Shown: positions 52,019-64,000 of the stretch, piece by piece
Position numbering within the stretch: position 1 is the first letter of the stretch
Layout: each line of letters begins with the position of its first letter
Origin: Nitrospirota bacterium
GTDB lineage: Bacteria; Nitrospirota; UBA9217
DNA length: 64,000 bases
Assembly (NCBI GenBank): GCA_963818475.1
Contig: CAWFSF010000006.1
Span: 800,001-864,000, forward strand
Reading direction: 5' to 3'
Notes under the pieces: model-generated
Databases searched by the model: none
Told to the model about the DNA's origin: nothing
The model's input: only the letters and a program-made list of their open reading frames with translations
Position numbers and translations under genes: made by a program

Positions 52019-52062
52019 TTTTGGTTCCGGATTGTCCGGTCAGGAACAAGCAAATGGATACT

Positions 52063-52467
52063 ATGAACAATAAAAAAAAGCTCCTCAAACAGGCAGGATT
52101 CACGCTGATCGAGCTTATGATCGTGCTGTCGATCATGGGGATTCTGATCACCATTGCCGAGCCCAGCTTCAAGCAGTCCATTATCAGGGCGAGGGAAGCG
52201 GTGCTGAAGGAGGACCTGTTCCAGATCCGTGACGCCATTGACCAGTATTATGCTGACAATAATAAATATCCCGAGCAACTTACCGACTTGATCAACCAGC
52301 AGGACCGTACTCGTAGCTATCTGCGCGAGATCCCCAAAGATCCGTTTACCAGGGCTGCGGACTGGATCACCGTATCACCGGAAGGCGGCGAAGAGGCCGG
52401 CGTCTTCGATGTTCACAGCGCCAGCCCGCTCATTGCGGTTGATGGCACCGCGTATAATACCTGGTAG
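52063..52467 (+). CDS. type II secretion pseudopilin (GspG-like)
   Basis: AG|FTLIELMIV, AIDQYYAD, YLREIPKDPFT, YNTW. Confidence 0.88.
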   Translation: MNNKKKLLKQAGFTLIELMIVLSIMGILITIAEPSFKQSIIRAREAVLKEDLFQIRDAIDQYYADNNKYPEQLTDLINQQDRTRSYLREIPKDPFTRAADWITVSPEGGEEAGVFDVHSASPLIAVDGTAYNTW

Positions 52468-52723
52468 GTTTCCCAGCCGTCCGTACCCGCTCCAGGTTCG
52501 TGCGGCAGCAGGGCGGCCAACTCGTGCAGAATTCTCACTGTTTGAAGCAGGGTTCTATTAACCTCCATTGCAACTCGATTTTTCTTTTCATTAATCCTAA
52601 AAATCCTGACATCGCCCACTCCGGCTTGACCCTCCGCCAAAAGCTCAAAGCGTGACCTCAGCATCCAAAATTACCAGCCGTCAGCTGATTCGCGTCACAA
52701 TCGTTTTTTTGAGCGTCATACAG

Positions 52724-52771
52724 CACCTGTCAATTCTGACAGGTGACAGGTGACACCTTCTCCTATATAAT
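52724..52771 (+). promoter_or_regulatory. palindromic activator site overlapping a sigma70 promoter (copy 1)
   Basis: CACCTGTCA-attc-TGACAGGTG (52724-52745); -35 GTGACA 52743-52748, 17 bp, -10 TATAAT 52766-52771. Confidence 0.8.
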
Positions 52772-53048
52772 TCACGTGCATTGCATCAGCGACATTCTTC
52801 TCTTGGCGCAGTCGATCGTCCGGCTGTGAAAAATATGAATTCGCATTTGCACCGCGACGCTCTTTGACATTCAGCCTAGCTGTCCAACCTGCGAGATTCT
52901 GTTTGCCCTATGCGGCAAATATGGTAAGATACTGCCGTCTGCTTCGTTGACCGATCAATTGCAGATATTGGCTGGTTTGTGCGTCGCCGGCATTCCCTCA
53001 GTGTGGACAAAGCGACCGGGGTAATAATTATCTTGTGGGAGAACTATC

Positions 53049-54923
53049 GTGACGAAAATCGTCAGCAGTTTCACTATTTTTCTTGCCCTGGCCTTCTCCA
53101 TAACCTTCCCCCCCATTACCCTGGCGCAGCCTGATGAAGACAAAAAGTTCCTTCTCATGTATTTTAAGGAAGAGGAGCTCGTCGTGGAGTCGCCGACGCG
53201 CGGCAAAAAACCCCTCACCCAGGTTGCGGAGAACATTACCGTCGTTACCGCGGATGACATCAAACTCATGAACGCCCACACGGTCGCGGACGTGCTGAAT
53301 GGCGTGACCGGTGTGCAGGTGTTCATGACCGGCGGGCCGGGCAGTTCTGCACTGGCATCCATCCAAGGCTCGGATAACAGGCATGTTGCCATATTCATGG
53401 ATGGAATTCCTATGAACAACCTTAGCGACAATGTCACGGAGATCGGTGCTCTACCGGTCCAGAATATAGAAAAGATAGAGATCATCAAGGGACCGGCGTC
53501 TTCTGCCTGGGGCTCCTCCCTCGGCGGTGTAGTGAATATTATTACGAAGTCGGGGAGTGATGATGGATCCCGCAGCACGGTCTCTGCGAGCTACGGCGGA
53601 AAAAGCATGGCTGATATTAGAATGGAAACCCTTGGCAAAGAGGAACGATTCGGTTACTACGTCACCGCAGGCAGGCTTCAAACCGACGGTTTCAGGTCTC
53701 ATAATGATTTTTCCGGGAACAATGTTTACACAAAACTGACGTATGGCTTATCGGATAAAACGACCATCGGTTTTACTGTTGGGTATGACAACCTTTCGAG
53801 GGGTATTGCAGAATATCCTGACCCTGCTTACGATCTGTTTATTAATAATAAAATAGAGACACTGAAATCGTCTTTGATGGTGAAATCTTTGTTGAGTGAC
53901 GACGTAGAAGCTCAGCTCTCATTTTGGAAGTTGAAACAGAATAATGACATTTATTATTATAAGTTGAGTTCCGGAGTAGAGCTTTCAAAATACTACTATA
54001 AAGATAGCGGTTACGGCTCGAGTGCGAAACTCTCCTGGAAACACGATTTACATAATATCGTTCTGGGTGTGGACTTAGATTCTAAAAAACTTGAGTCTAA
54101 TACTATAGCTGACAATGATGGTTTAAAAAAATGGGCTTATTATATCAACGATACTGTTGCGATCGATCGCTTGTCACTTACGCCTGGCATCCGTTATGAT
54201 AAAACAAGCACGAACGGCGATTTCACCAGCCCGAGCCTTGGCGTTACTTATAAAATAACCGACTCATCTTTGCTCCGGGCATATGTTGCGCGGGGCTTCA
54301 GCATTCCGCCGCTTGGTTATACTTATGGAGATAACGATTTTTATATATCAAATCCAGACTTAAAAATGGAAAGAGTTTGGTCCTATGAGCTAGGAGCTGA
54401 ATCTACAGCGTTGCAATATGTCTGGATGAAGCTGTCCCTATTTCGGCACGATATCAGCGGCGGCATAAGACCAGAACCCGTATCAACGACTTCATCTACA
54501 CGGGTCAATGATGGAAGAGAGAGAAGGCAGGGAATGGAAATAGAGATGAAGTCACTGCCTCTCTACCATACTTTAATGGTTGCTGCAGTAACATTTATAA
54601 ACGCGAAAGATCTGGATACGGGTGAAACTATCGTAAACGTTCCTCAGCGAACATATGATATAGGCCTCCAGTTTGAGAATAATTCATTCAAGGCGCTGCT
54701 CAAGGGACATTATATTTATTGGAACGCTGATCCTACGTATAACGGGAAATACGATTCGATAATCGTGGATCTTCATGTTGCGAAGAATCTTTATGCGCAG
54801 CAAGATCAAGCGCTCGAAGCTTATTTTGATATCCATAATATATTCAACGGATCTCAATATCTTGTGGATGTATATACAAACCCGGCACGGTGGTTTGAAG
54901 CCGGCGTACGCTATACGTTCTAA
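53049..54923 (+). CDS. TonB-dependent outer membrane receptor
   Basis: Signal peptide, plug IEKIEIIKGPASSAWGSSLGGVVNIITK, C-terminal GVRYTF. Confidence 0.93.
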   Translation: MTKIVSSFTIFLALAFSITFPPITLAQPDEDKKFLLMYFKEEELVVESPTRGKKPLTQVAENITVVTADDIKLMNAHTVADVLNGVTGVQVFMTGGPGSSALASIQGSDNRHVAIFMDGIPMNNLSDNVTEIGALPVQNIEKIEIIKGPASSAWGSSLGGVVNIITKSGSDDGSRSTVSASYGGKSMADIRMETLGKEERFGYYVTAGRLQTDGFRSHNDFSGNNVYTKLTYGLSDKTTIGFTVGYDNLSRGIAEYPDPAYDLFINNKIETLKSSLMVKSLLSDDVEAQLSFWKLKQNNDIYYYKLSSGVELSKYYYKDSGYGSSAKLSWKHDLHNIVLGVDLDSKKLESNTIADNDGLKKWAYYINDTVAIDRLSLTPGIRYDKTSTNGDFTSPSLGVTYKITDSSLLRAYVARGFSIPPLGYTYGDNDFYISNPDLKMERVWSYELGAESTALQYVWMKLSLFRHDISGGIRPEPVSTTSSTRVNDGRERRQGMEIEMKSLPLYHTLMVAAVTFINAKDLDTGETIVNVPQRTYDIGLQFENNSFKALLKGHYIYWNADPTYNGKYDSIIVDLHVAKNLYAQQDQALEAYFDIHNIFNGSQYLVDVYTNPARWFEAGVRYTF

Positions 54924-54975
54924 TAACTTGAGCACTATTCGCTTTAAATTAAAAAAGGGGGGGAGGTGAGTGGGG

Positions 54976-55071
54976 ATGAAAAATCGTATTATCGTTTTAA
55001 AAAAAGGAGTTGATAAAAAAGGCGTTGTTTCCGGCGGCTGTTGTGCCATGGCTTTTATTCCGATCCGTTAG
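54976..55071 (+). CDS. 31-aa RiPP precursor peptide MKNRIIVLKKGVDKKGVVSGGCCAMAFIPIR
   Basis: Strong GGAGGTG RBS, directly upstream of an rSAM/SPASM gene, CC motif after GG; below the ORF-track cutoff. Confidence 0.8.
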   Translation: MKNRIIVLKKGVDKKGVVSGGCCAMAFIPIR

Positions 55072-55088
55072 TTAACGTACGTTTTAGA

Positions 55089-55121
55089 GAGGGAGGGCTG
55101 CTGGCTCTCCCTCGCATTTTA
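55089..55121 (+). terminator. stem-loop between precursor and maturase
   Basis: GAGGGAGGGC-tgctg-GCTCTCCCTC then gcattttatt. Confidence 0.6.
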
Positions 55122-55168
55122 TTCTTATAAAAGCGACAGATTTTGATCTACCTCATGATGAAAAGACC

Positions 55169-56455
55169 ATGCCATTATCAAAATATACTAAAATATACCC
55201 CTCCCCAGATGGACCTGATTCCGTAATTCTTTATTCTACGAAAAATGCATCGGCACTGCTCGTCCCTTCCGGATCGATTGAAGACATCCAGAAAAACAGC
55301 TTGTCCGACGAGGAAAAAGAAACCCTCACGGATCACGGTTGCCTGGTAAAGGATGCCTCGGAAGAAAGACGTGAGATGCTCACCTTTATCCGGGAAGTGA
55401 ATTCTCTCGATAAAACGCTGAACTATATTGTTGTCTTGAACCTGGACTGCAATCTCGCATGCACATACTGTTTCGAGGGCGAAAGAAAGGGCAAGCTCTA
55501 CCTGTCCGATGAAACAGCCGACCAGTTCGTAGATTTCGTGAAGCGCAGCAGTGTCGGAAAAGAAGAGATCAATATCACCTTTTACGGCGGCGAGCCGCTC
55601 TTAAGCATGGAGCGCATTGCAGGGATCTCTGAAAAACTTCGTTTGTTCTCGGAACAGAAGGGACTTGCTTACGGCTTCTCGCTCGTTACCAACGGGACCC
55701 TGCTCACACCCAGGAATGTAAAGCGCTTAACGCCTCTCGGCTTGAAAAGCGCGAAAGTAACGCTCGATGGGCCGGAATATGTCCATGACATGTTCAGGCC
55801 ATTCAAATCCGGCGAAGGGTCCTTCAATATCATCATGCGGAATATCAAAGACGTCTGCGACATGATACGCATCCAGATCGGGGGTAATTATACGCAGGAA
55901 CATTTTCAGAAGTTTCCCCGGCTTCTTGACGTTCTCGCGGAAAAAGGCCTAACTCCCGACAAGATATATATGGTCAAATTCGACCCCGTGGTCAATGAAA
56001 GCGCAGAGTTTGCGCCGCGTGATTTTCATGACGGGTGCGCGTCGATCAATGAACCCTGGATCAGCGAAGCGAGCCTGTTCCTGCGGGAAGAGATATTGAA
56101 GCGGGGATACAAAACGCCGAAGATCATGCCGTCTCCCTGCGCCATTGAGCGGGAAAGCAGCCTGGTGGTCAACTACGACGGTGCACTGTACAAATGCCCG
56201 GGGCTGATCGGCAGGGCTGACTGCTGCGTGGGCGATCTCAAGAGCGGCTTGATCGACTACGGCAGCTCTCATGATCTCGACGCCTGGAAAAACGAGGAAT
56301 GCCTTGCCTGCGAATATCTCCCGCTCTGTTTCGGCGGATGCAAGTACATGAAGCTGCTGCGCGACGGCACCCTGCGCGGCATCAATTGTCAAAAAGAGTA
56401 TCTTGACCGGACCCTCGCCGGACTGGTGGCACAGGATATTAAATACGATCTATGA
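55169..56455 (+). CDS. radical SAM/SPASM peptide maturase (geopeptide-maturase-like)
   Basis: CNLACTYC, FYGGEPLL, TNGTLL, SPASM C...DGALYKC...CLACEYLPLCFGGC...C; N-terminal extension could be an RRE. Confidence 0.9.
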   Translation: MPLSKYTKIYPSPDGPDSVILYSTKNASALLVPSGSIEDIQKNSLSDEEKETLTDHGCLVKDASEERREMLTFIREVNSLDKTLNYIVVLNLDCNLACTYCFEGERKGKLYLSDETADQFVDFVKRSSVGKEEINITFYGGEPLLSMERIAGISEKLRLFSEQKGLAYGFSLVTNGTLLTPRNVKRLTPLGLKSAKVTLDGPEYVHDMFRPFKSGEGSFNIIMRNIKDVCDMIRIQIGGNYTQEHFQKFPRLLDVLAEKGLTPDKIYMVKFDPVVNESAEFAPRDFHDGCASINEPWISEASLFLREEILKRGYKTPKIMPSPCAIERESSLVVNYDGALYKCPGLIGRADCCVGDLKSGLIDYGSSHDLDAWKNEECLACEYLPLCFGGCKYMKLLRDGTLRGINCQKEYLDRTLAGLVAQDIKYDL

Positions 56456-56464
56456 CCCGTTTCA

Positions 56465-56496
56465 ATATCTGTGAAATCTGCGTAATCTGCGGATAA
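56465..56496. repeat. solo arm of an AATCTGCG nonamer repeat element
   Basis: atatctgtgaaatctgcgtaatctgcggataa. Confidence 0.55.
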
Positions 56497-56572
56497 TACA
56501 TTGACTTGAGCAGTTACTAAAAAAATCTTTTCACTAATCAGCAGGCTTTCGGATAGATAACACAGGCATTCC

Positions 56573-57485
56573 TTGATCAAATTGAATTCATACTTCGCCC
56601 GCAACCTTCTCCTCATCTTTTCCCTGTTCGCAGCGGTTCCGGTGCTCGGACCCGCGTCCGTGAACGCATGCGATGTTGTCGTAGTGAAAAGCGCCGACCT
56701 GAAACCCTACCGCGACGCGCTTCGAGGGTTTCGGGACGCGAGTTCCTGCACCGTGAGCGAAGTGGAATTGAACGACGATCGCGATCTTGAAAGAATACGT
56801 CAGAAAACGGCCCGATGTCGTGCTGGCGATCGGTACAACGGCCTTTAAGAAGCTCAGGCTGTTGAACGATGTTCCCGTTGTGTACGTTATGGCTGTCCTC
56901 TCCGAGGCGGACCGCGCACTTCCTCCGAATATTTCCGGCGTGAGCATGGAGATACCGCCTGCGGCCTATTTTGCCGCCATGAAACAGGTCTTTCCCTCGG
57001 CAAAACAGGTCGGTCTTTTGTACGATCCGCGCAACAGCGAGACCTTTGTCGAAGAAGCGTCACGCGACGCACGCGCCGCCGGTCTCGAGCTGTCGGACAG
57101 GAAGCTCCCCGATCCCGCAGGCCTGGCTGCTGCTCTCGGCAGCATGCGGGACACTATCGACATCCTGTGGATCTTGCCAGATCCGACCGTGGTAACGCCT
57201 GAAACGATCGATTACCTGCTGCGTTTTTCCATTCAAAACAATATTCCGCTCTTCGCTTTTTCAAAAAAATACGTCGAAATGGGCGCGATCGCTTCGCTCG
57301 ATGTTGACCCCTACGACATGGGCGCGCAGGCCGCGGACATAGCAAAGGGGATCGCCGCGGGGGGCAAAGGGTCGGTACGCGTATACGCGCGGAAAACCCG
57401 GCTTTCGATCAACGGGAAGGCCGCGAACAAAATGGGCGTCAAGATCGACAGCGAAACGGCGCGCAGGGTGGACCATGCCGATTAG
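56573..57485 (+). CDS. periplasmic ABC-type substrate-binding-like protein without permease (frameshift near 56800)
   Basis: Signal peptide, PDVVLAIG, VGLLYDP, LWILPD, YVEMGA, DMGAQAA, LSIN. Confidence 0.85.
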
Positions 57486-58927
57486 GAGCTTTCGGAACAG
57501 GATCCGGGAACAATTCGGACTGAAGGTGTTCACCGCCTTCTTCGTCGTCATTGTTGTGCTCCTGACAACCTATACCGGCATCGGCGCTTTCCGTGAATGG
57601 CACAAGGCGAAGGACAAATTGAAGGAACAGGGGGAGATGCTTGCAGACCTGCTCTCACAGAATGTCCTCGTCGGGCTGTTCGCGGAGGACGAAACACTGC
57701 TCGAGGCGGCTGCGGCCGGAATGCTCGGTCTGAAAGACGTCACGTCGATCACGATCTATAACAGCGAGCTGAAGTTGCTCTATGCCGGTAAGCGGTCTTC
57801 GTCCGGGCAAAGCGCAACGCCCCTCCCTGGCGGACCGGTCCCCGGTCTTGGGGGTGTTTCCGGTCCCGACGTCGTCGAAACAGCGGACTCCTTTCAGTTC
57901 ACAAAACCCGTGTCGATCAGGTCGCGGTCCCGAGGCTGTCGAGTCCCTGTATTTCGACGTGCAGGGCACGGGGCGCAGCGGCCGGGTGATAGGATACGCG
58001 CAAGTCGTCCTGAGCAAGGACTCATTTCGCAAGGACATCGCATCGCTCGTGACGCGGAGAGCCGTAATGATGCTCCTGTTCATCGCTGCCGGCTGGGTCA
58101 TCATTTCTTTCGCAGTGAAGCAGGTCACGCGGCCGCTCCGGAACCTGACCGGGAAGGTGCGGTCGCTTGAATTGGGACTGCCCATCGAACCGGCTGTTGT
58201 GGAAACGGAGGATGAGATCGGGAAGCTCGCAGCGGCCTTCAACGCGATGGTTGAGGCGCGCGTCAGAGCGGAAAAATCCATGCGGGAGAGCGAGGAACGG
58301 GAACGGCACCTGATAGCGACCGACCTTCATGATTTCGTGGGACAGAACCTCGTGGCGTCGCAATACCAGCTCGGAGCATTGCGGAAGCTCATCTCCTCCC
58401 CTGAAGCGGCCGCACGCCTGGACGAGGCGCGCGAGCTGATCGCGCAGACCATCCAGTACACGCGGTCGCTCACCATCGAGCTCAGGTCTCCCGTGCTGGA
58501 GGAACTCGGCTTGCAATCGGCCATCGAATCGCTGGCCGAAAGTTATGAAACCACCCACGGGGTCCCTGTGCGGGTGGAGAATGACGGCTTGCCGATGGAG
58601 ATCAGCGACGAGACGGGCTATCTGCTCTTCCGGAGCGTGCGCGAGCTCCTGATGAACATCGTAAAGCACGCGAAGGCGACCGAAGCGAGGATCTCGGTGA
58701 CGAGGACGGGGGACAATGTCCGCATCGCGGTCAGGGACAACGGCATCGGGTTCATTGCAACGGCGGCGCCACAGCCCGGCCATAGCTTTGGTTTATTCAC
58801 CATCCGCGAGAGGCTACGAGGCCTTGGCGGGCATTGCGACGTCGAATCCGCGCCCGGCGCGGGGACAACGGTGGTCCTTACGGCGCCGCTCGTGAGATCC
58901 GGGGAACAGGGAAAGAGGACGCCATGA
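57475..58927 (+). CDS. membrane sensor histidine kinase, HAMP + HisKA_3 (frameshift near 57925)
   Basis: 2 TM, DEIGKLAAAFN, ERERHLIATDLHDFVGQNL, ELLMNIVKHA, DNGIGF, FGLFTIRER. Confidence 0.9.
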
Positions 58928-59568
58928 TAAAGATACTTCTCGTTGACGACCACAAGATCGTGCGCGCCGGGCTCAGGGCGGTGATAGCCGGGCACCCGGA
59001 CATGACCGTTGTTGCCGAAGCGGGCGACGGCAGGACCGCCGTGGAACTCGCCGCCGAAGTGTCGCCGAACGTTATTATCATGGACATCTCCATGCCCGGT
59101 TTGAACGGAACGGAAGCGACCCGCAGGATACTGGAGGCGAACCCGGACGCCAGGATCATAGCGCTGTCGATGCATCTTGAACGGCGCATCGTGCTCCAGA
59201 TGCTGGGCGCCGGCGCAAAAGGATATTTATTGAAAGACGGCGCCGATGACGAGGTGATCGACGCCATTCTCGCTGTTACGCAGAATGCGACCTACCTGAG
59301 TCCGAGGATCAGCAACATGGTCTTGAGGGACTACGTCGAACGGGTCTCGAAAAATGAACTGTCCTCGATCTCCCTTCTGTCGTCGCGGGAGCGGGAAGTT
59401 CTGCAGCTTCTGGCCGAGGGGAAAAAGACAAAGGATATCGCCACGCTCCTTACGGTAAGCATAAAAACCGCAGAATTCTACCGCCAGCAGATCATGGAAA
59501 AACTGGACGTTCATACCATCGCCGAGCTTACGAAGCTGGCTATCCGCGAAGGCCTGACCTCGCTGTAA
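58924..59568 (+). CDS. NarL/LuxR family response regulator
   Basis: LLVDDH, MDISMP, GYLLK, LSSREREVLQLLAEGKKTKDIA HTH. Confidence 0.95.
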   Translation: MIKILLVDDHKIVRAGLRAVIAGHPDMTVVAEAGDGRTAVELAAEVSPNVIIMDISMPGLNGTEATRRILEANPDARIIALSMHLERRIVLQMLGAGAKGYLLKDGADDEVIDAILAVTQNATYLSPRISNMVLRDYVERVSKNELSSISLLSSREREVLQLLAEGKKTKDIATLLTVSIKTAEFYRQQIMEKLDVHTIAELTKLAIREGLTSL

Positions 59569-59682
59569 CATTTCCGCAGTATTCAAACTTCCTGATAGCC
59601 CTATCTGCCATACCTGCTTGTATGAAATCAGGCCCCTGCACGTCATAACCGGCTCAAAACCCAAAAAAGGACTCTCAAAAGG

Positions 59683-59730
59683 CACCTGTCAGTTCTGACA
59701 GGTGACAGCGAACAAAAAATCACTTACAAT
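59683..59730 (+). promoter_or_regulatory. palindromic activator site overlapping a sigma70 promoter (copy 2)
   Basis: CACCTGTCA-gttc-TGACAGGTG (59683-59704); -35 GTGACA 59702-59707, 17 bp, -10 TACAAT 59725-59730. Confidence 0.8.
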
Positions 59731-59856
59731 CCCGCAACTACTGGTTGATGCAGTTCTGGTCTTATGCAGGTTCCGTTTCAACCATGATTCTTATCAACCC
59801 ACGCTGTTTTGTGCGATTACCTGCGACAATGTGCGTAAAAAAAGGAGGATACTATT

Positions 59857-60864
59857 ATGGACATCGAATTTCACTATTACATCACCGCTCTTATAGCACT
59901 TCGCGCCGGATTTACTAAGGAAGAGGCCTATATACTTGCCTATGCTTCGCAGCATGTTGACGATAATACCGACGTCTTTAAGATCAATCAGGGTACCGCC
60001 GAGGCATACAGCAATTACATAAGTCAAACGTCAAACATACTAAAAGCGGAAAAGGAGCTAATGCAAATCTATCCCGTTTTCCACTTTATGCCGGGGAACA
60101 GGGACGAGATTGAATGTGAAGGGGCCATGCGATGTGACGGAAAACTTCATGTTCTCAATACGATACCGGACAATAGCAATGCCTGCGCCGTCCTGCAGGC
60201 GGCTTTCGACGACGGCAATCTCTACCGCATAGGGATAGCAACGCATATGTACGCAGATACGTTCGCGCATCAGAACTTTGTCGGCTACTACGAATCGTTC
60301 AATGCCATGAAAGGCGTTCTCGGTAAAGCTATTCCCGATGTGGGGCATGCGGACGCCCAACACAACCCCGATCTGCCGGGGCTCATCTGGGATGATAAAC
60401 GCCTTATCAACAAGAACAAGGATGTCTGCAACAGGGACCGTTTCCTCAAAGCGGCAGAACGCATCTTTGAGCAGTACCGGCGACATAAAGATCCCCACTG
60501 CTCGCCTGAAGTCATTACAGCGGACAAGACCTCGCTTATGGCCACTATTACTTATGCGATCGGTGAAACCGGCGATCATGCGGTCAACGATCAGGAGCGA
60601 AAGAATCGCATAGCCCGGTATAGAAAAGCCATTGGTGAAGATTTTAAGGACTATGACGAAAAGGAGTGGCTTGGCGAGGCAATTGAACGAAAAGGCCTCC
60701 TTGCCCCGATCAATCCGTGGCCCTCGTATGCATGGAAAGCCGATCACACGGACAGCCACTGGTTCAAGTTCCAGGAAGCGGTCAAGAACCATCAATGGTT
60801 CGCCAAGGACAATGTCCTGAGCCCCATCACCAAAAATCTTCAGCTTGATCGATTTTATAATTGA
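59857..60864 (+). CDS. His-rich putative metallohydrolase (DUF6765-like; phospholipase C/P1 nuclease-like)
   Basis: AAGGAGG RBS; FHYY, SQHVDDN, FHFMPG, GIATHMYADTFAHQNF, GHADA. Confidence 0.7.
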   Translation: MDIEFHYYITALIALRAGFTKEEAYILAYASQHVDDNTDVFKINQGTAEAYSNYISQTSNILKAEKELMQIYPVFHFMPGNRDEIECEGAMRCDGKLHVLNTIPDNSNACAVLQAAFDDGNLYRIGIATHMYADTFAHQNFVGYYESFNAMKGVLGKAIPDVGHADAQHNPDLPGLIWDDKRLINKNKDVCNRDRFLKAAERIFEQYRRHKDPHCSPEVITADKTSLMATITYAIGETGDHAVNDQERKNRIARYRKAIGEDFKDYDEKEWLGEAIERKGLLAPINPWPSYAWKADHTDSHWFKFQEAVKNHQWFAKDNVLSPITKNLQLDRFYN

Positions 60865-60896
60865 GGACTACCTTACGGATGGAGTGTTCCCTTTCC

Positions 60897-61460
60897 ATGA
60901 TACATGAATACGAGATCAACGGTGTGACCCTGCGGACCGGGGATATCATCTGCACGCATGACGGGGGCGCCCCGATTCTGGAGGGCCAGCTCTGGCATTT
61001 TGTCGGGAACCTGATCCCCGGCGATGTCGACCATGTCGCTCTTTATCTTGGACCGGGCGGTCGCTGCATAGAGGCAGGGCCGAAAGGGGTCAACATATTC
61101 GAAATGAAGAGCAGGACCTGGGATTCCGTGAATATGCGGGACCAGCGCGGCCCGGTTGTGGATACGTTCTACGGCGTCGCCTGCCCGGTAGAGGGCAGAG
61201 GTCTTGCGGAAGAAAAAAAAGCCGAGATCCGGGAGAGCGTTGCCCGGTACTGCATTGCGCAGGCAGGAAAGCCGTACAATTTGAATTTTATGAATTCGGA
61301 AACAGAAGATACGTTTTATTGCAGTCAATTAGCGTGTCTGGCGTATCTGAAAAGCGGCATCATTTTGAACACGGACCTGGGGGTGCCTCTGGTTCCCGGG
61401 ACGCACAGCATCATCTTTCCGCAGGAGATATGGAGCGGGTGTGTAAATAAAAAGGCATGA
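60897..61460 (+). CDS. permuted papain-like NlpC/P60 enzyme (YiiX/YebB-like)
   Basis: GDII, HVALY, IEAG, GKPY, FYCSQL with His preceding Cys. Confidence 0.82.
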   Translation: MIHEYEINGVTLRTGDIICTHDGGAPILEGQLWHFVGNLIPGDVDHVALYLGPGGRCIEAGPKGVNIFEMKSRTWDSVNMRDQRGPVVDTFYGVACPVEGRGLAEEKKAEIRESVARYCIAQAGKPYNLNFMNSETEDTFYCSQLACLAYLKSGIILNTDLGVPLVPGTHSIIFPQEIWSGCVNKKA

Positions 61461-63205: not shown

Positions 63206-63327
63206 ACGGGATCATCGCAGGACTTAGGCAAGAAATAAGCAAACACGTGCTTGACCGCTCGAATCCGTTCCCCATAATAGGCGCGATTCGGGGGGCGACG
63301 CAATGGGTGCAACAAGGAGAGATTTTC

Positions 63328-64000
63328 ATGGAACCGGAAGCAGCGCGCAAAAAACACACCATACTTGTCGTGGATGATGACCACGATGTGCTTAGATCAC
63401 TTCGATTAGTGCTGACCACCTGTGAATACAAGGTCATCACGGCCTCCAATGCCGCAGCGGCGCTTGACATACTGCATAATCCGATGGCGGGCGTGGACGT
63501 CGTCCTCACGGACATCAGGATGCCCGGAATGGATGGTCTCGAATTGGCAGTTAAAATTCATCAACTTGACCGGGAGATCCCTGTTCTGGTCATGTCCGCC
63601 TACGCCGAGCTGACCGATGCCATCGACGCGATCCATCGAGGGGCCTTTGATTTCATCATCAAACCGCTCAATCCCGAGTATCTCATCCATTCCATCCGAA
63701 AGGCGGAGACCCTCCTCGACATGAGGACCCTGGAACGGAACTACAAGCAGGCGCTCCAGGAGGACGTCACCATAAAGACCAGGGAACTGCAGGACCTGAA
63801 CAGGGAGATCATCCACCGCCTGACCGTGGTCGCGGAATACCGGGACACGGACACGGGTCTGCACAACTCGCGGGTCGGGAGCTTCGCGGGAACGATCGCG
63901 GAAACGCTCGGGATGTCCGCTGAATTTGTCGAAACAATAACGCTTGCGAGCTCGCTTCATGATATCGGCAAGGTCGGGATCATGGACAGCATCCTTCTGA
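63328..64000 (+). CDS. response regulator with HD-GYP domain (RpfG-like), truncated by window end
   Basis: AAGGAG RBS; ILVVDDD, TDIRMPGMDG, AEYRDTDTGLH, LHDIGKVGI. Confidence 0.9.
   Translation, partial: MEPEAARKKHTILVVDDDHDVLRSLRLVLTTCEYKVITASNAAAALDILHNPMAGVDVVLTDIRMPGMDGLELAVKIHQLDREIPVLVMSAYAELTDAIDAIHRGAFDFIIKPLNPEYLIHSIRKAETLLDMRTLERNYKQALQEDVTIKTRELQDLNREIIHRLTVVAEYRDTDTGLHNSRVGSFAGTIAETLGMSAEFVETITLASSLHDIGKVGIMDSILL

Follow-up and report, generated by a model that had tools for sequence, protein, structure and literature searches.

Peptide signalling is regarded as a Gram-positive habit, as the outer membrane excludes peptides above porin size. Here we ask whether a six-gene block in the genome of a Nitrospirota bacterium encodes such signalling across two membranes, by means of a modified peptide that is released, taken back and sensed. 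The block occupies positions 52724-59730 of a 64,000-nucleotide (nt) stretch of DNA, hereafter referred to as the window (positions 1-64,000, corresponding to C6:800001-864000 of the source genome, G000, where C6 is the contig), and its six genes are co-oriented, all on the + strand. A sequence-only reading of the window had named them as a TonB receptor, a 31-residue Cys-Cys peptide, a radical SAM/SPASM enzyme, a periplasmic binding protein, a histidine kinase and a NarL/LuxR-type regulator, and the analysis bore out all six identities at the coordinates given below. We tentatively propose, with slightly less than even confidence, that a secreted thioether peptide would re-enter through the receptor of its own cassette and be sensed by the binding protein together with a Cache-domain kinase. 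The palindrome at the promoter of the block, which had been taken for the feedback site of the circuit, is a lux box.

The cassette and its distribution

The first gene encodes a TonB-dependent outer-membrane receptor of 624 residues (53049..54923; Pfam Plug, 79.6 bits; barrel, 121.1 bits), which has a signal peptide, a plug and a barrel of the 22-strand class and is without an N-terminal signalling extension. Its top NCBIfam match is BtuB-type and lies far under the cut-off (141 vs 599.7 bits), and its solved relatives (BtuB and Cir, ~70-75 bits) are generic and uninformative on the ligand. The precursor peptide gene follows at 54976..55071 (codons 54976-55068), behind a purine-rich, Shine-Dalgarno-like stretch; direct reading of the open reading frame gives 31 residues, comprising a basic leader, Cys22-Cys23 and an 8-residue tail. 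Downstream lie the radical SAM/SPASM maturase (428 residues; 55169..56455), a periplasmic solute-binding protein of family PF04392 with a signal peptide (56573..57485; 94.5 bits), a sensor kinase and a NarL/FixJ-type response regulator of 214 residues (58924..59568; Response_reg, 92 bits; GerE, 60.2 bits). The kinase (57475..58927) has the order transmembrane segment, periplasmic sCache_4-type domain, transmembrane segment, HAMP, HisKA_3 and HATPase_c. Gene ends overlap between binding protein and kinase (57475/57485) and between kinase and regulator (58924/58927), where the regulator start overlaps the kinase stop codon.

The block running from receptor through peptide, maturase and binding protein to sensor kinase is present in three copies in this genome, with divergent peptides, and is found in many sediment bacteria. 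Among 61 genomes (60 relatives and G000), 13 encode a radical SAM enzyme over the TIGR04280 cut-off. We examined 13 loci of related genomes, one of which, L039, falls outside the family (256.6 bits) and has none of the partner genes, leaving 12 family loci; the receptor is present in all 12, and L038 alone is without the binding protein and kinase, which the other 11 have. Loci L046 and L048 also have all four large genes. The named relatives scanned are metagenome-assembled genomes (MAGs) of Thermodesulfovibrionia/Nitrospirota, and the gene order is the same in them. Across the phylum, the enzyme scored over the cut-off in 43 of 401 genomes, and 20 loci from other families of the phylum yielded the receptor in 18 cases, the binding protein in 15 and the N-terminus of the sensor in 13. 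The linkage outlasts rearrangement, as five of these loci have the binding protein and sensor in divergent orientation to the receptor. A second genome group, reached via a MAG titled Pseudomonadota, has the enzyme in 5 of 20 genomes; four of its six loci have the receptor, and three of them, with the receptor present, have the binding protein and sensor. A Cys-Cys peptide was detected in 15 of 15 loci and in 16 of the 20 loci from other families, and in nearly all loci the receptor gene immediately precedes the peptide gene.

Within ~8 kb on the flanks of the 13 loci no exporter, leader peptidase, permease or ATPase is conserved, nor is anything else, and no permease or ATPase gene lies within the block itself, in keeping with the earlier remark that the binding protein comes without either. 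Co-occurrence in other genomes had been set beforehand as a test that could refute the circuit, and the genes do co-occur widely. Of the six-gene block and its upstream palindrome, whose joint synteny was to be surveyed, the block recurs in 11 of the 12 family loci and in most of the 20, and the palindrome is absent from the related loci searched. A step in the content of guanine plus cytosine, from 0.45 in the receptor gene to 0.61 in the kinase gene, was considered as a sign of a mosaic origin and rejected, since the same gradient occurs in most loci. The enzyme family is known by name only, and its linkage to an importer and sensor module appears to be undescribed so far.

Alignment of 18 precursors revealed four invariant positions, I5, G11, C22 and C23 in the numbering of the window peptide. 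The aligned sequences have a basic leader, the 7-14 residues past the Cys pair vary freely, and some sequences carry a long Lys-rich insert. The 31-residue Cys-Cys peptide is a member of a coherent precursor family, and this family is not the one that the sequence-only reading had named as similar: the TIGR04229 model (22 positions, cut-off 30 bits) gave no match to the peptide in a direct scan at E-values up to 10, and whole-genome scans with it gave none at any of the three loci here, nor in five further genomes. Long inserts rich in Lys, Ala and Thr stand between leader and Cys pair at loci L029, L031, L033, L077, L078 and L079, and two loci of other genomes (L065 and L067) have two tandem precursor genes, with slightly differing tails, ahead of the maturase gene. 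In the window, the peptide gene is followed by a terminator-like hairpin of 11 pairs (55089-55113) and a T-rich tail (55089..55123 in all, + strand; z-score -2.67). Equivalent hairpins follow the peptide genes at both paralogous loci, and the element probably acts by attenuation, giving more peptide mRNA relative to enzyme mRNA.

The maturase is a member of the geopeptide maturase family TIGR04280, as the sequence-only reading had suggested: it scored 585 bits against a cut-off of 400, and the alignment covers profile positions 1-427 of 428. Its translation shows a CX3CX2C motif and a Cys-rich SPASM C-terminus (Pfam Radical_SAM, 48.7 bits), and many SPASM maturase models align to its C-terminal part. 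Models of thioether-forming maturases matched at 135.5 bits (PapB) and 91.6 bits (SCIFF), both below the family cut-offs, and among solved structures the thioether-forming 5wgg comes closest (E = 7e-20). Since the nearest families and structures make thioethers, two thioether bridges at Cys22 and Cys23 would most likely be the chemistry.

Proposed perception of the peptide and competing explanations

The kinases of the cassettes share an N-terminal module, which consists of a transmembrane segment, a periplasmic domain of ~165 residues, a second transmembrane segment and HAMP. The periplasmic domain was assigned to PF09984 sCache_4 in three of four homologues scanned (24.7-36.2 bits, cut-off 22.1), and a structural model of the sensor domain shows a PDC-like fold (predicted local distance difference test, pLDDT, 70) with weak matches to WalK and CitA. 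Behind this conserved module the transmitter varies, being of HisKA_3 or HisKA type and with or without a fused receiver (REC). Where a HisKA_3 kinase is present and the sequence extends far enough downstream (9 loci), a NarL regulator comes after it in 7. An input module that is kept while outputs are exchanged identifies binding protein plus Cache domain as the unit of perception. Strong homologues of the two, binding protein and sensor, are confined in this genome to the three cassettes. In the 60 relatives, sensor scores of at least 200 bits were seen in the 12 genomes of the same family with the radical SAM enzyme and in 0 of the 48 others, at a threshold that was set after the scores were seen and across related genomes that are not independent; the top match among those 48 reached 172 bits, in a genome that is 65% complete. 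A weaker homologue of the kinase, at another site in the genome, likewise has a binding-protein gene coupled to it upstream. The earlier proposal that the binding protein is tied to a kinase instead of a transporter is thus backed by the overlapping genes and by the absence of a permease nearby. Complex prediction for the intact paralogue, pairing residues 41-310 of the binding protein with the periplasmic domain of the kinase (residues 40-205) and using alignments, gave a score of 0.09 (mark 0.32).

The route that we propose begins with the radical SAM/SPASM enzyme, which would bind the basic leader of the 31-residue precursor and, judging from family likeness, probably cross-link the two invariant cysteines as thioethers. 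The small cyclic product would then leave the cell by a route not encoded near the cassette. At 10-15 residues, a bicyclic peptide is above the size that porins admit; a sensor in the periplasm would see it only through a dedicated gate, and the TonB-dependent receptor of the cassette would take it back over the outer membrane. In the periplasm, the PF04392 protein would capture the product and present it to the sCache_4 domain, whereupon the kinase would phosphorylate the NarL-type regulator and transcription would change. The three divergent copies in the genome would form three separate channels, and the variable tails and three divergent sets fit a role in recognition specificity.

Several points weigh against this route. 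We infer every part of it, from modification, secretion, import and binding of the peptide to its role as a signal. Neither an exporter nor a leader peptidase is conserved beside the cassette. Five of the 20 loci from other families, as well as L038, L091 and L092, keep the peptide and/or the maturase without the binding protein or the sensor, and the enzyme-peptide pair can therefore stand alone. The promoter site of this copy is common to 27 other promoters. The solved PF04392 proteins, as tabulated in PMC10443332 (Table 1), bind free Trp, Tyr or Phe and not peptides. Finally, the frames of the binding protein and of the kinase are both broken in this copy.

The first of these breaks lies near 56795-56810, in the binding-protein gene, and the second between 57795 and 57875, in the kinase gene; both adjoin short homopolymer runs, and the sequence-only reading had noted neither. 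The paralogues at the second locus are intact, with a binding protein of 310 residues and a kinase of 643 residues. Assembly error is plausible, because the paralogous cassettes of this 7-contig assembly also have split genes, namely the receptor gene at both and the maturase gene, in three pieces, at one. Among public reads, only two DNA runs of one study have small shares (0.07 and 0.06), which gave fragments from relatives, and no RNA holder is listed. Contigs from the two DNA runs show 90-99% similarity, and no listed piece spans either frameshift, so real breaks and assembly errors are not distinguishable from the public reads.

The same genes could also serve a metallophore or scavenger, in which the Cys-Cys peptide, with or without modification, would chelate a metal or other cargo outside the cell, the receptor would retrieve it, and the binding protein and kinase would report its arrival and raise production. 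This explanation has the same topology of export and re-import as the signalling route, and the invariant cysteine pair and a receptor of the small BtuB/Cir size class speak for it. Methanobactin operons are parallel in their gene set (receptor, small Cys peptide, maturase and periplasmic binding protein), and siderophore receptors for pyoverdine or ferric citrate report the arrival of their ligand and raise production. However, neither an inner-membrane importer nor a metal-responsive regulator is conserved near the 13 loci, and the highly variable tails and three divergent sets suit recognition specificity more than a single chelating chemistry. Moreover, the relatives of the enzyme form thioethers, which would use up the thiols. 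We consider a metallophore unlikely.

In a further explanation, which we regard as quite improbable, the receptor, binding protein and two-component system would sense a non-peptide compound from outside, such as an aromatic amino acid, and the response would be a peptide product acting in the cell or its envelope. The absence of a linked exporter in the 13 loci, the loci that have peptide and maturase alone, and the known PF04392 ligands Trp, Tyr and Phe (as listed in PMC10443332) point in this direction. Yet an amino acid would cross by way of porins, without need of a TonB receptor; binding proteins and sensors of the strong subfamily were found only beside the radical SAM gene, both here and in relatives; and the receptor gene comes immediately before the peptide gene at nearly all loci.

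The promoter palindrome and its regulon

The palindrome, CACCTGTCA-N4-TGACAGGTG, has 9-base-pair (bp) arms and a 4-bp spacer, 22 bp in all. The window contains two matches, both exact (52724..52745 and 59683..59704), against 0.03 expected. The end of the first copy overlaps a promoter-like pair, GTGACA-17-TATAAT (52743..52771, + strand; 11/12 consensus matches), from which a leader of ~270 nt extends to the receptor gene; the second copy runs into GTGACA-17-TACAAT (59702-59730). An Rfam scan of 52400-60000 at E-values up to 1 gave no match, so no riboswitch was found in the 270-nt leader. Genome-wide, we counted 28 copies at up to two mismatches, 20 of which are exact, and the reversed control gave 0. 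A -35-like hexamer closes all 28 copies, a -10 hexamer follows 17 nt on in 25 of them, and the centre of the site, at about -43.5, is at the position of a polymerase-contacting activator. The genes behind the 28 promoters are mutually unrelated and include those for large secreted proteins, a LysE-type translocator, a trypsin-endonuclease fusion and a receiver protein, among others.

Neither paralogous cassette has the palindrome, nor do the 13 related loci searched for it (12 of them family cassettes), and none of the 60 relatives has more than one copy; five have a single one. In two of these five it stands immediately in front of a LuxI-family gene (PF00765, 68.1 and 65.5 bits), whose convergent partner is a LuxR gene (Autoind_bind, PF03472, 85.3 bits; GerE, 73.8 bits). 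Lux boxes are typically inverted repeats at about -43. Since the palindrome adjoins luxI and luxR in two relatives, it is a lux box. The sequence-only reading was right about its presence at both operon promoters, where each exact copy overlaps the -35/-10 pair, and the autoregulatory role that it had assigned to the site gives way before 28 copies in the genome and none at the other cassettes searched.

This genome itself, at an assembly completeness of 91%, has no match to LuxI (PF00765) or to the autoinducer-binding domain (PF03472). A LuxR homologue of 168 residues is encoded ~27 kb downstream, outside the window (C6:886445-886951); it keeps the first ~40 residues and the GerE domain, and ~90 residues of the ligand-binding core are missing. 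Its identity with the relative's LuxR is 57% over 104 residues, compared with 35% over 57 residues for the cassette regulator. In the first 10 residues of the recognition helix, it agrees with the LuxR of relative G006 at 7 positions and with the cassette regulator at 3. On these comparisons, the 168-residue homologue, and not the cassette regulator, would quite probably be the protein that binds both window sites. The cassette copy is transcribed from a lux-box promoter of a 28-promoter regulon, most likely run by the truncated LuxR homologue, and so is wired under another regulator. That the cassette's NarL-type regulator would bind the 22-bp palindrome and activate its own and the next operon, as first proposed, is very improbable: it has a GerE helix-turn-helix of the class shared with LuxR and the site stands at an activator position before the operon, but the 28 sites precede unrelated genes, neither the two paralogous cassettes nor the 13 related loci have one, the same palindrome adjoins luxI/luxR in two relatives, and the LuxR homologue is closer to the LuxR of a relative in overall identity and in its recognition helix.

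The gene of the LuxR homologue ends a co-oriented run that starts at a lux-box promoter (C6:883020) and comprises genes for a receiver protein, a 401-residue protein without a Pfam match and a PAS kinase. The homologue may be a ligand-independent activator with positive feedback. Lux-box promoters cluster at C6:852-883 kb and C5:748-785 kb, and many share ~25 nt just past the -10 hexamer, including a short palindrome round the likely transcription start. Judged by sequence, the promoter looks like one that spread recently in one lineage.

A separate palindrome of 16 bp, CTACCCG-AA-CGGGTAG, lies upstream of the second cassette (C6:244210; L083:711-726). It is the sole copy in the genome at up to two mismatches and stands 23 nt before TATAAT, with its centre again at -43.5. 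With the same spacing it also precedes related cassettes of three other genomes, one of which, G027, has 10 copies; at the second cassette, a consensus promoter lies closer to the receptor gene than the palindrome does. The 16-bp palindrome fits a candidate autoregulation site for the regulator of the second cassette. For the window locus, comparison of its upstream region with those of its two closest relatives gave no convincing palindrome in common. The regulator of the second cassette (C6:250932-251765; L083:7433-8266) has 277 residues and a remnant second helix-turn-helix between receiver and GerE domains, and its C-terminus shares 46% identity with a relative's LuxR. A gene resembling a group II intron reverse transcriptase, recognized by eye, lies just upstream of this cassette (C6:241793-243127).

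Behind the second lux box of the window is an operon of a DUF6765 gene (59857-60864; 219.9 bits) and a gene for a permuted papain-like C92 peptidase (60861-61460). This operon (59857-61460) is unrelated to the cassette and was not found beside any other cassette. A prepilin-type pseudopilin gene on the upstream flank (52021-52467) and, on the downstream flank, a gene for a receiver-domain protein that is HD-GYP-like by eye (63247-63999) were likewise taken as unrelated. The spacer between maturase and binding-protein genes contains a short repeat (56466-56517) with 4-5 copies in the genome, at which many unrelated metagenome contigs end.

Comparison with known systems

The cassette combines known kinds of parts, namely the maturation of a ribosomally synthesized and post-translationally modified peptide (RiPP), sensing by a binding protein and kinase, and TonB uptake. 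A wider reading, which we hold to be doubtful, is that it would represent a peptide-pheromone design specific to diderm bacteria, with a dedicated TonB-powered gate, a binding protein and a Cache-domain kinase. Tails, gates and sensors would diversify together into private channels, three of them in this genome, and one channel would have come under the control of a LuxR-type protein now devoid of its ligand domain and in command of 28 promoters. If the signalling route is true, it would show how diderm bacteria can use a modified peptide together with their own energised outer-membrane gate and a periplasmic sensor, and it would give the geopeptide radical SAM family a function. At five proteins and a peptide, the cassette is compact and could be rebuilt in a laboratory host. 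The lux box adds a caution, in that a striking promoter palindrome may belong to a genome-wide regulon, so that a genome-wide count is needed before it is read as a feedback site.

The closest named system is the geopeptide pair of TIGR04280 and TIGR04229. Its enzyme is matched here at full length and over the cut-off, with a short peptide gene directly upstream, whereas the peptide itself falls outside TIGR04229 and a different Cys-Cys family takes that place. To our knowledge, no function has been demonstrated so far for the geopeptide radical SAM family; our literature search found no paper naming 'geopeptide' or 'TIGR04280', and a search on ranthipeptides or radical SAM enzymes with a TonB receptor, kinase and binding protein found nothing comparable. 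Maturases of SCIFF and ranthipeptides (CteB, 5wgg; PapB) are likewise radical SAM/SPASM enzymes with a short Cys-bearing precursor, and ranthipeptides take part in clostridial quorum sensing. In contrast to those systems, the enzyme here scores under their family cut-offs, the peptide has only two cysteines, which are adjacent, the host is diderm, and genes for import and sensing are present.

The control of this copy resembles LuxI/LuxR systems in its inverted-repeat palindrome at about -43, which adjoins luxI/luxR in two relatives. It differs from them in that this genome is without a LuxI match, the LuxR homologue is without ~90 residues of its ligand domain, and the box stands at 28 promoters. 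On the side of perception, the agr and ComX/ComP systems also set a short modified peptide beside a histidine kinase and regulator (the modification being predicted here), and the variable tails and divergent sets recall pherotypes. Unlike them, the cassette is without a dedicated exporter or processing gene, and to be perceived the peptide would have to pass through an outer-membrane importer and meet a binding protein in the periplasm. LuxP-LuxQ and TorT-TorS offer the parallel of a transporter-less binding protein whose gene overlaps that of a kinase with a PDC/Cache-type periplasmic domain, whereas the binding protein here is of family PF04392, with another class of ligand, and its interaction with the kinase is a predicted one.

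Peptide natural products encoded beside a TonB-dependent transporter are known from methanobactin (MbnT/MbnE) and from lasso-peptide clusters. Methanobactin-type RiPPs are defined by enzymes of MbnB/MbnC type, an inner-membrane importer and metal-responsive regulation; these hallmark genes are not conserved near the cassette in the 13 loci, and the enzyme here is a radical SAM protein. In the Bacteroides Itf cluster, a RiPP is encoded beside a TonB transporter (PMC11002830). Such clusters of RiPP and TonB transporter (methanobactin, lasso peptide and Itf) have exporters, other classes of enzyme or a sigma/anti-sigma pair, whereas the cassette described here joins its peptide and outer-membrane receptor to a binding protein and a two-component kinase.

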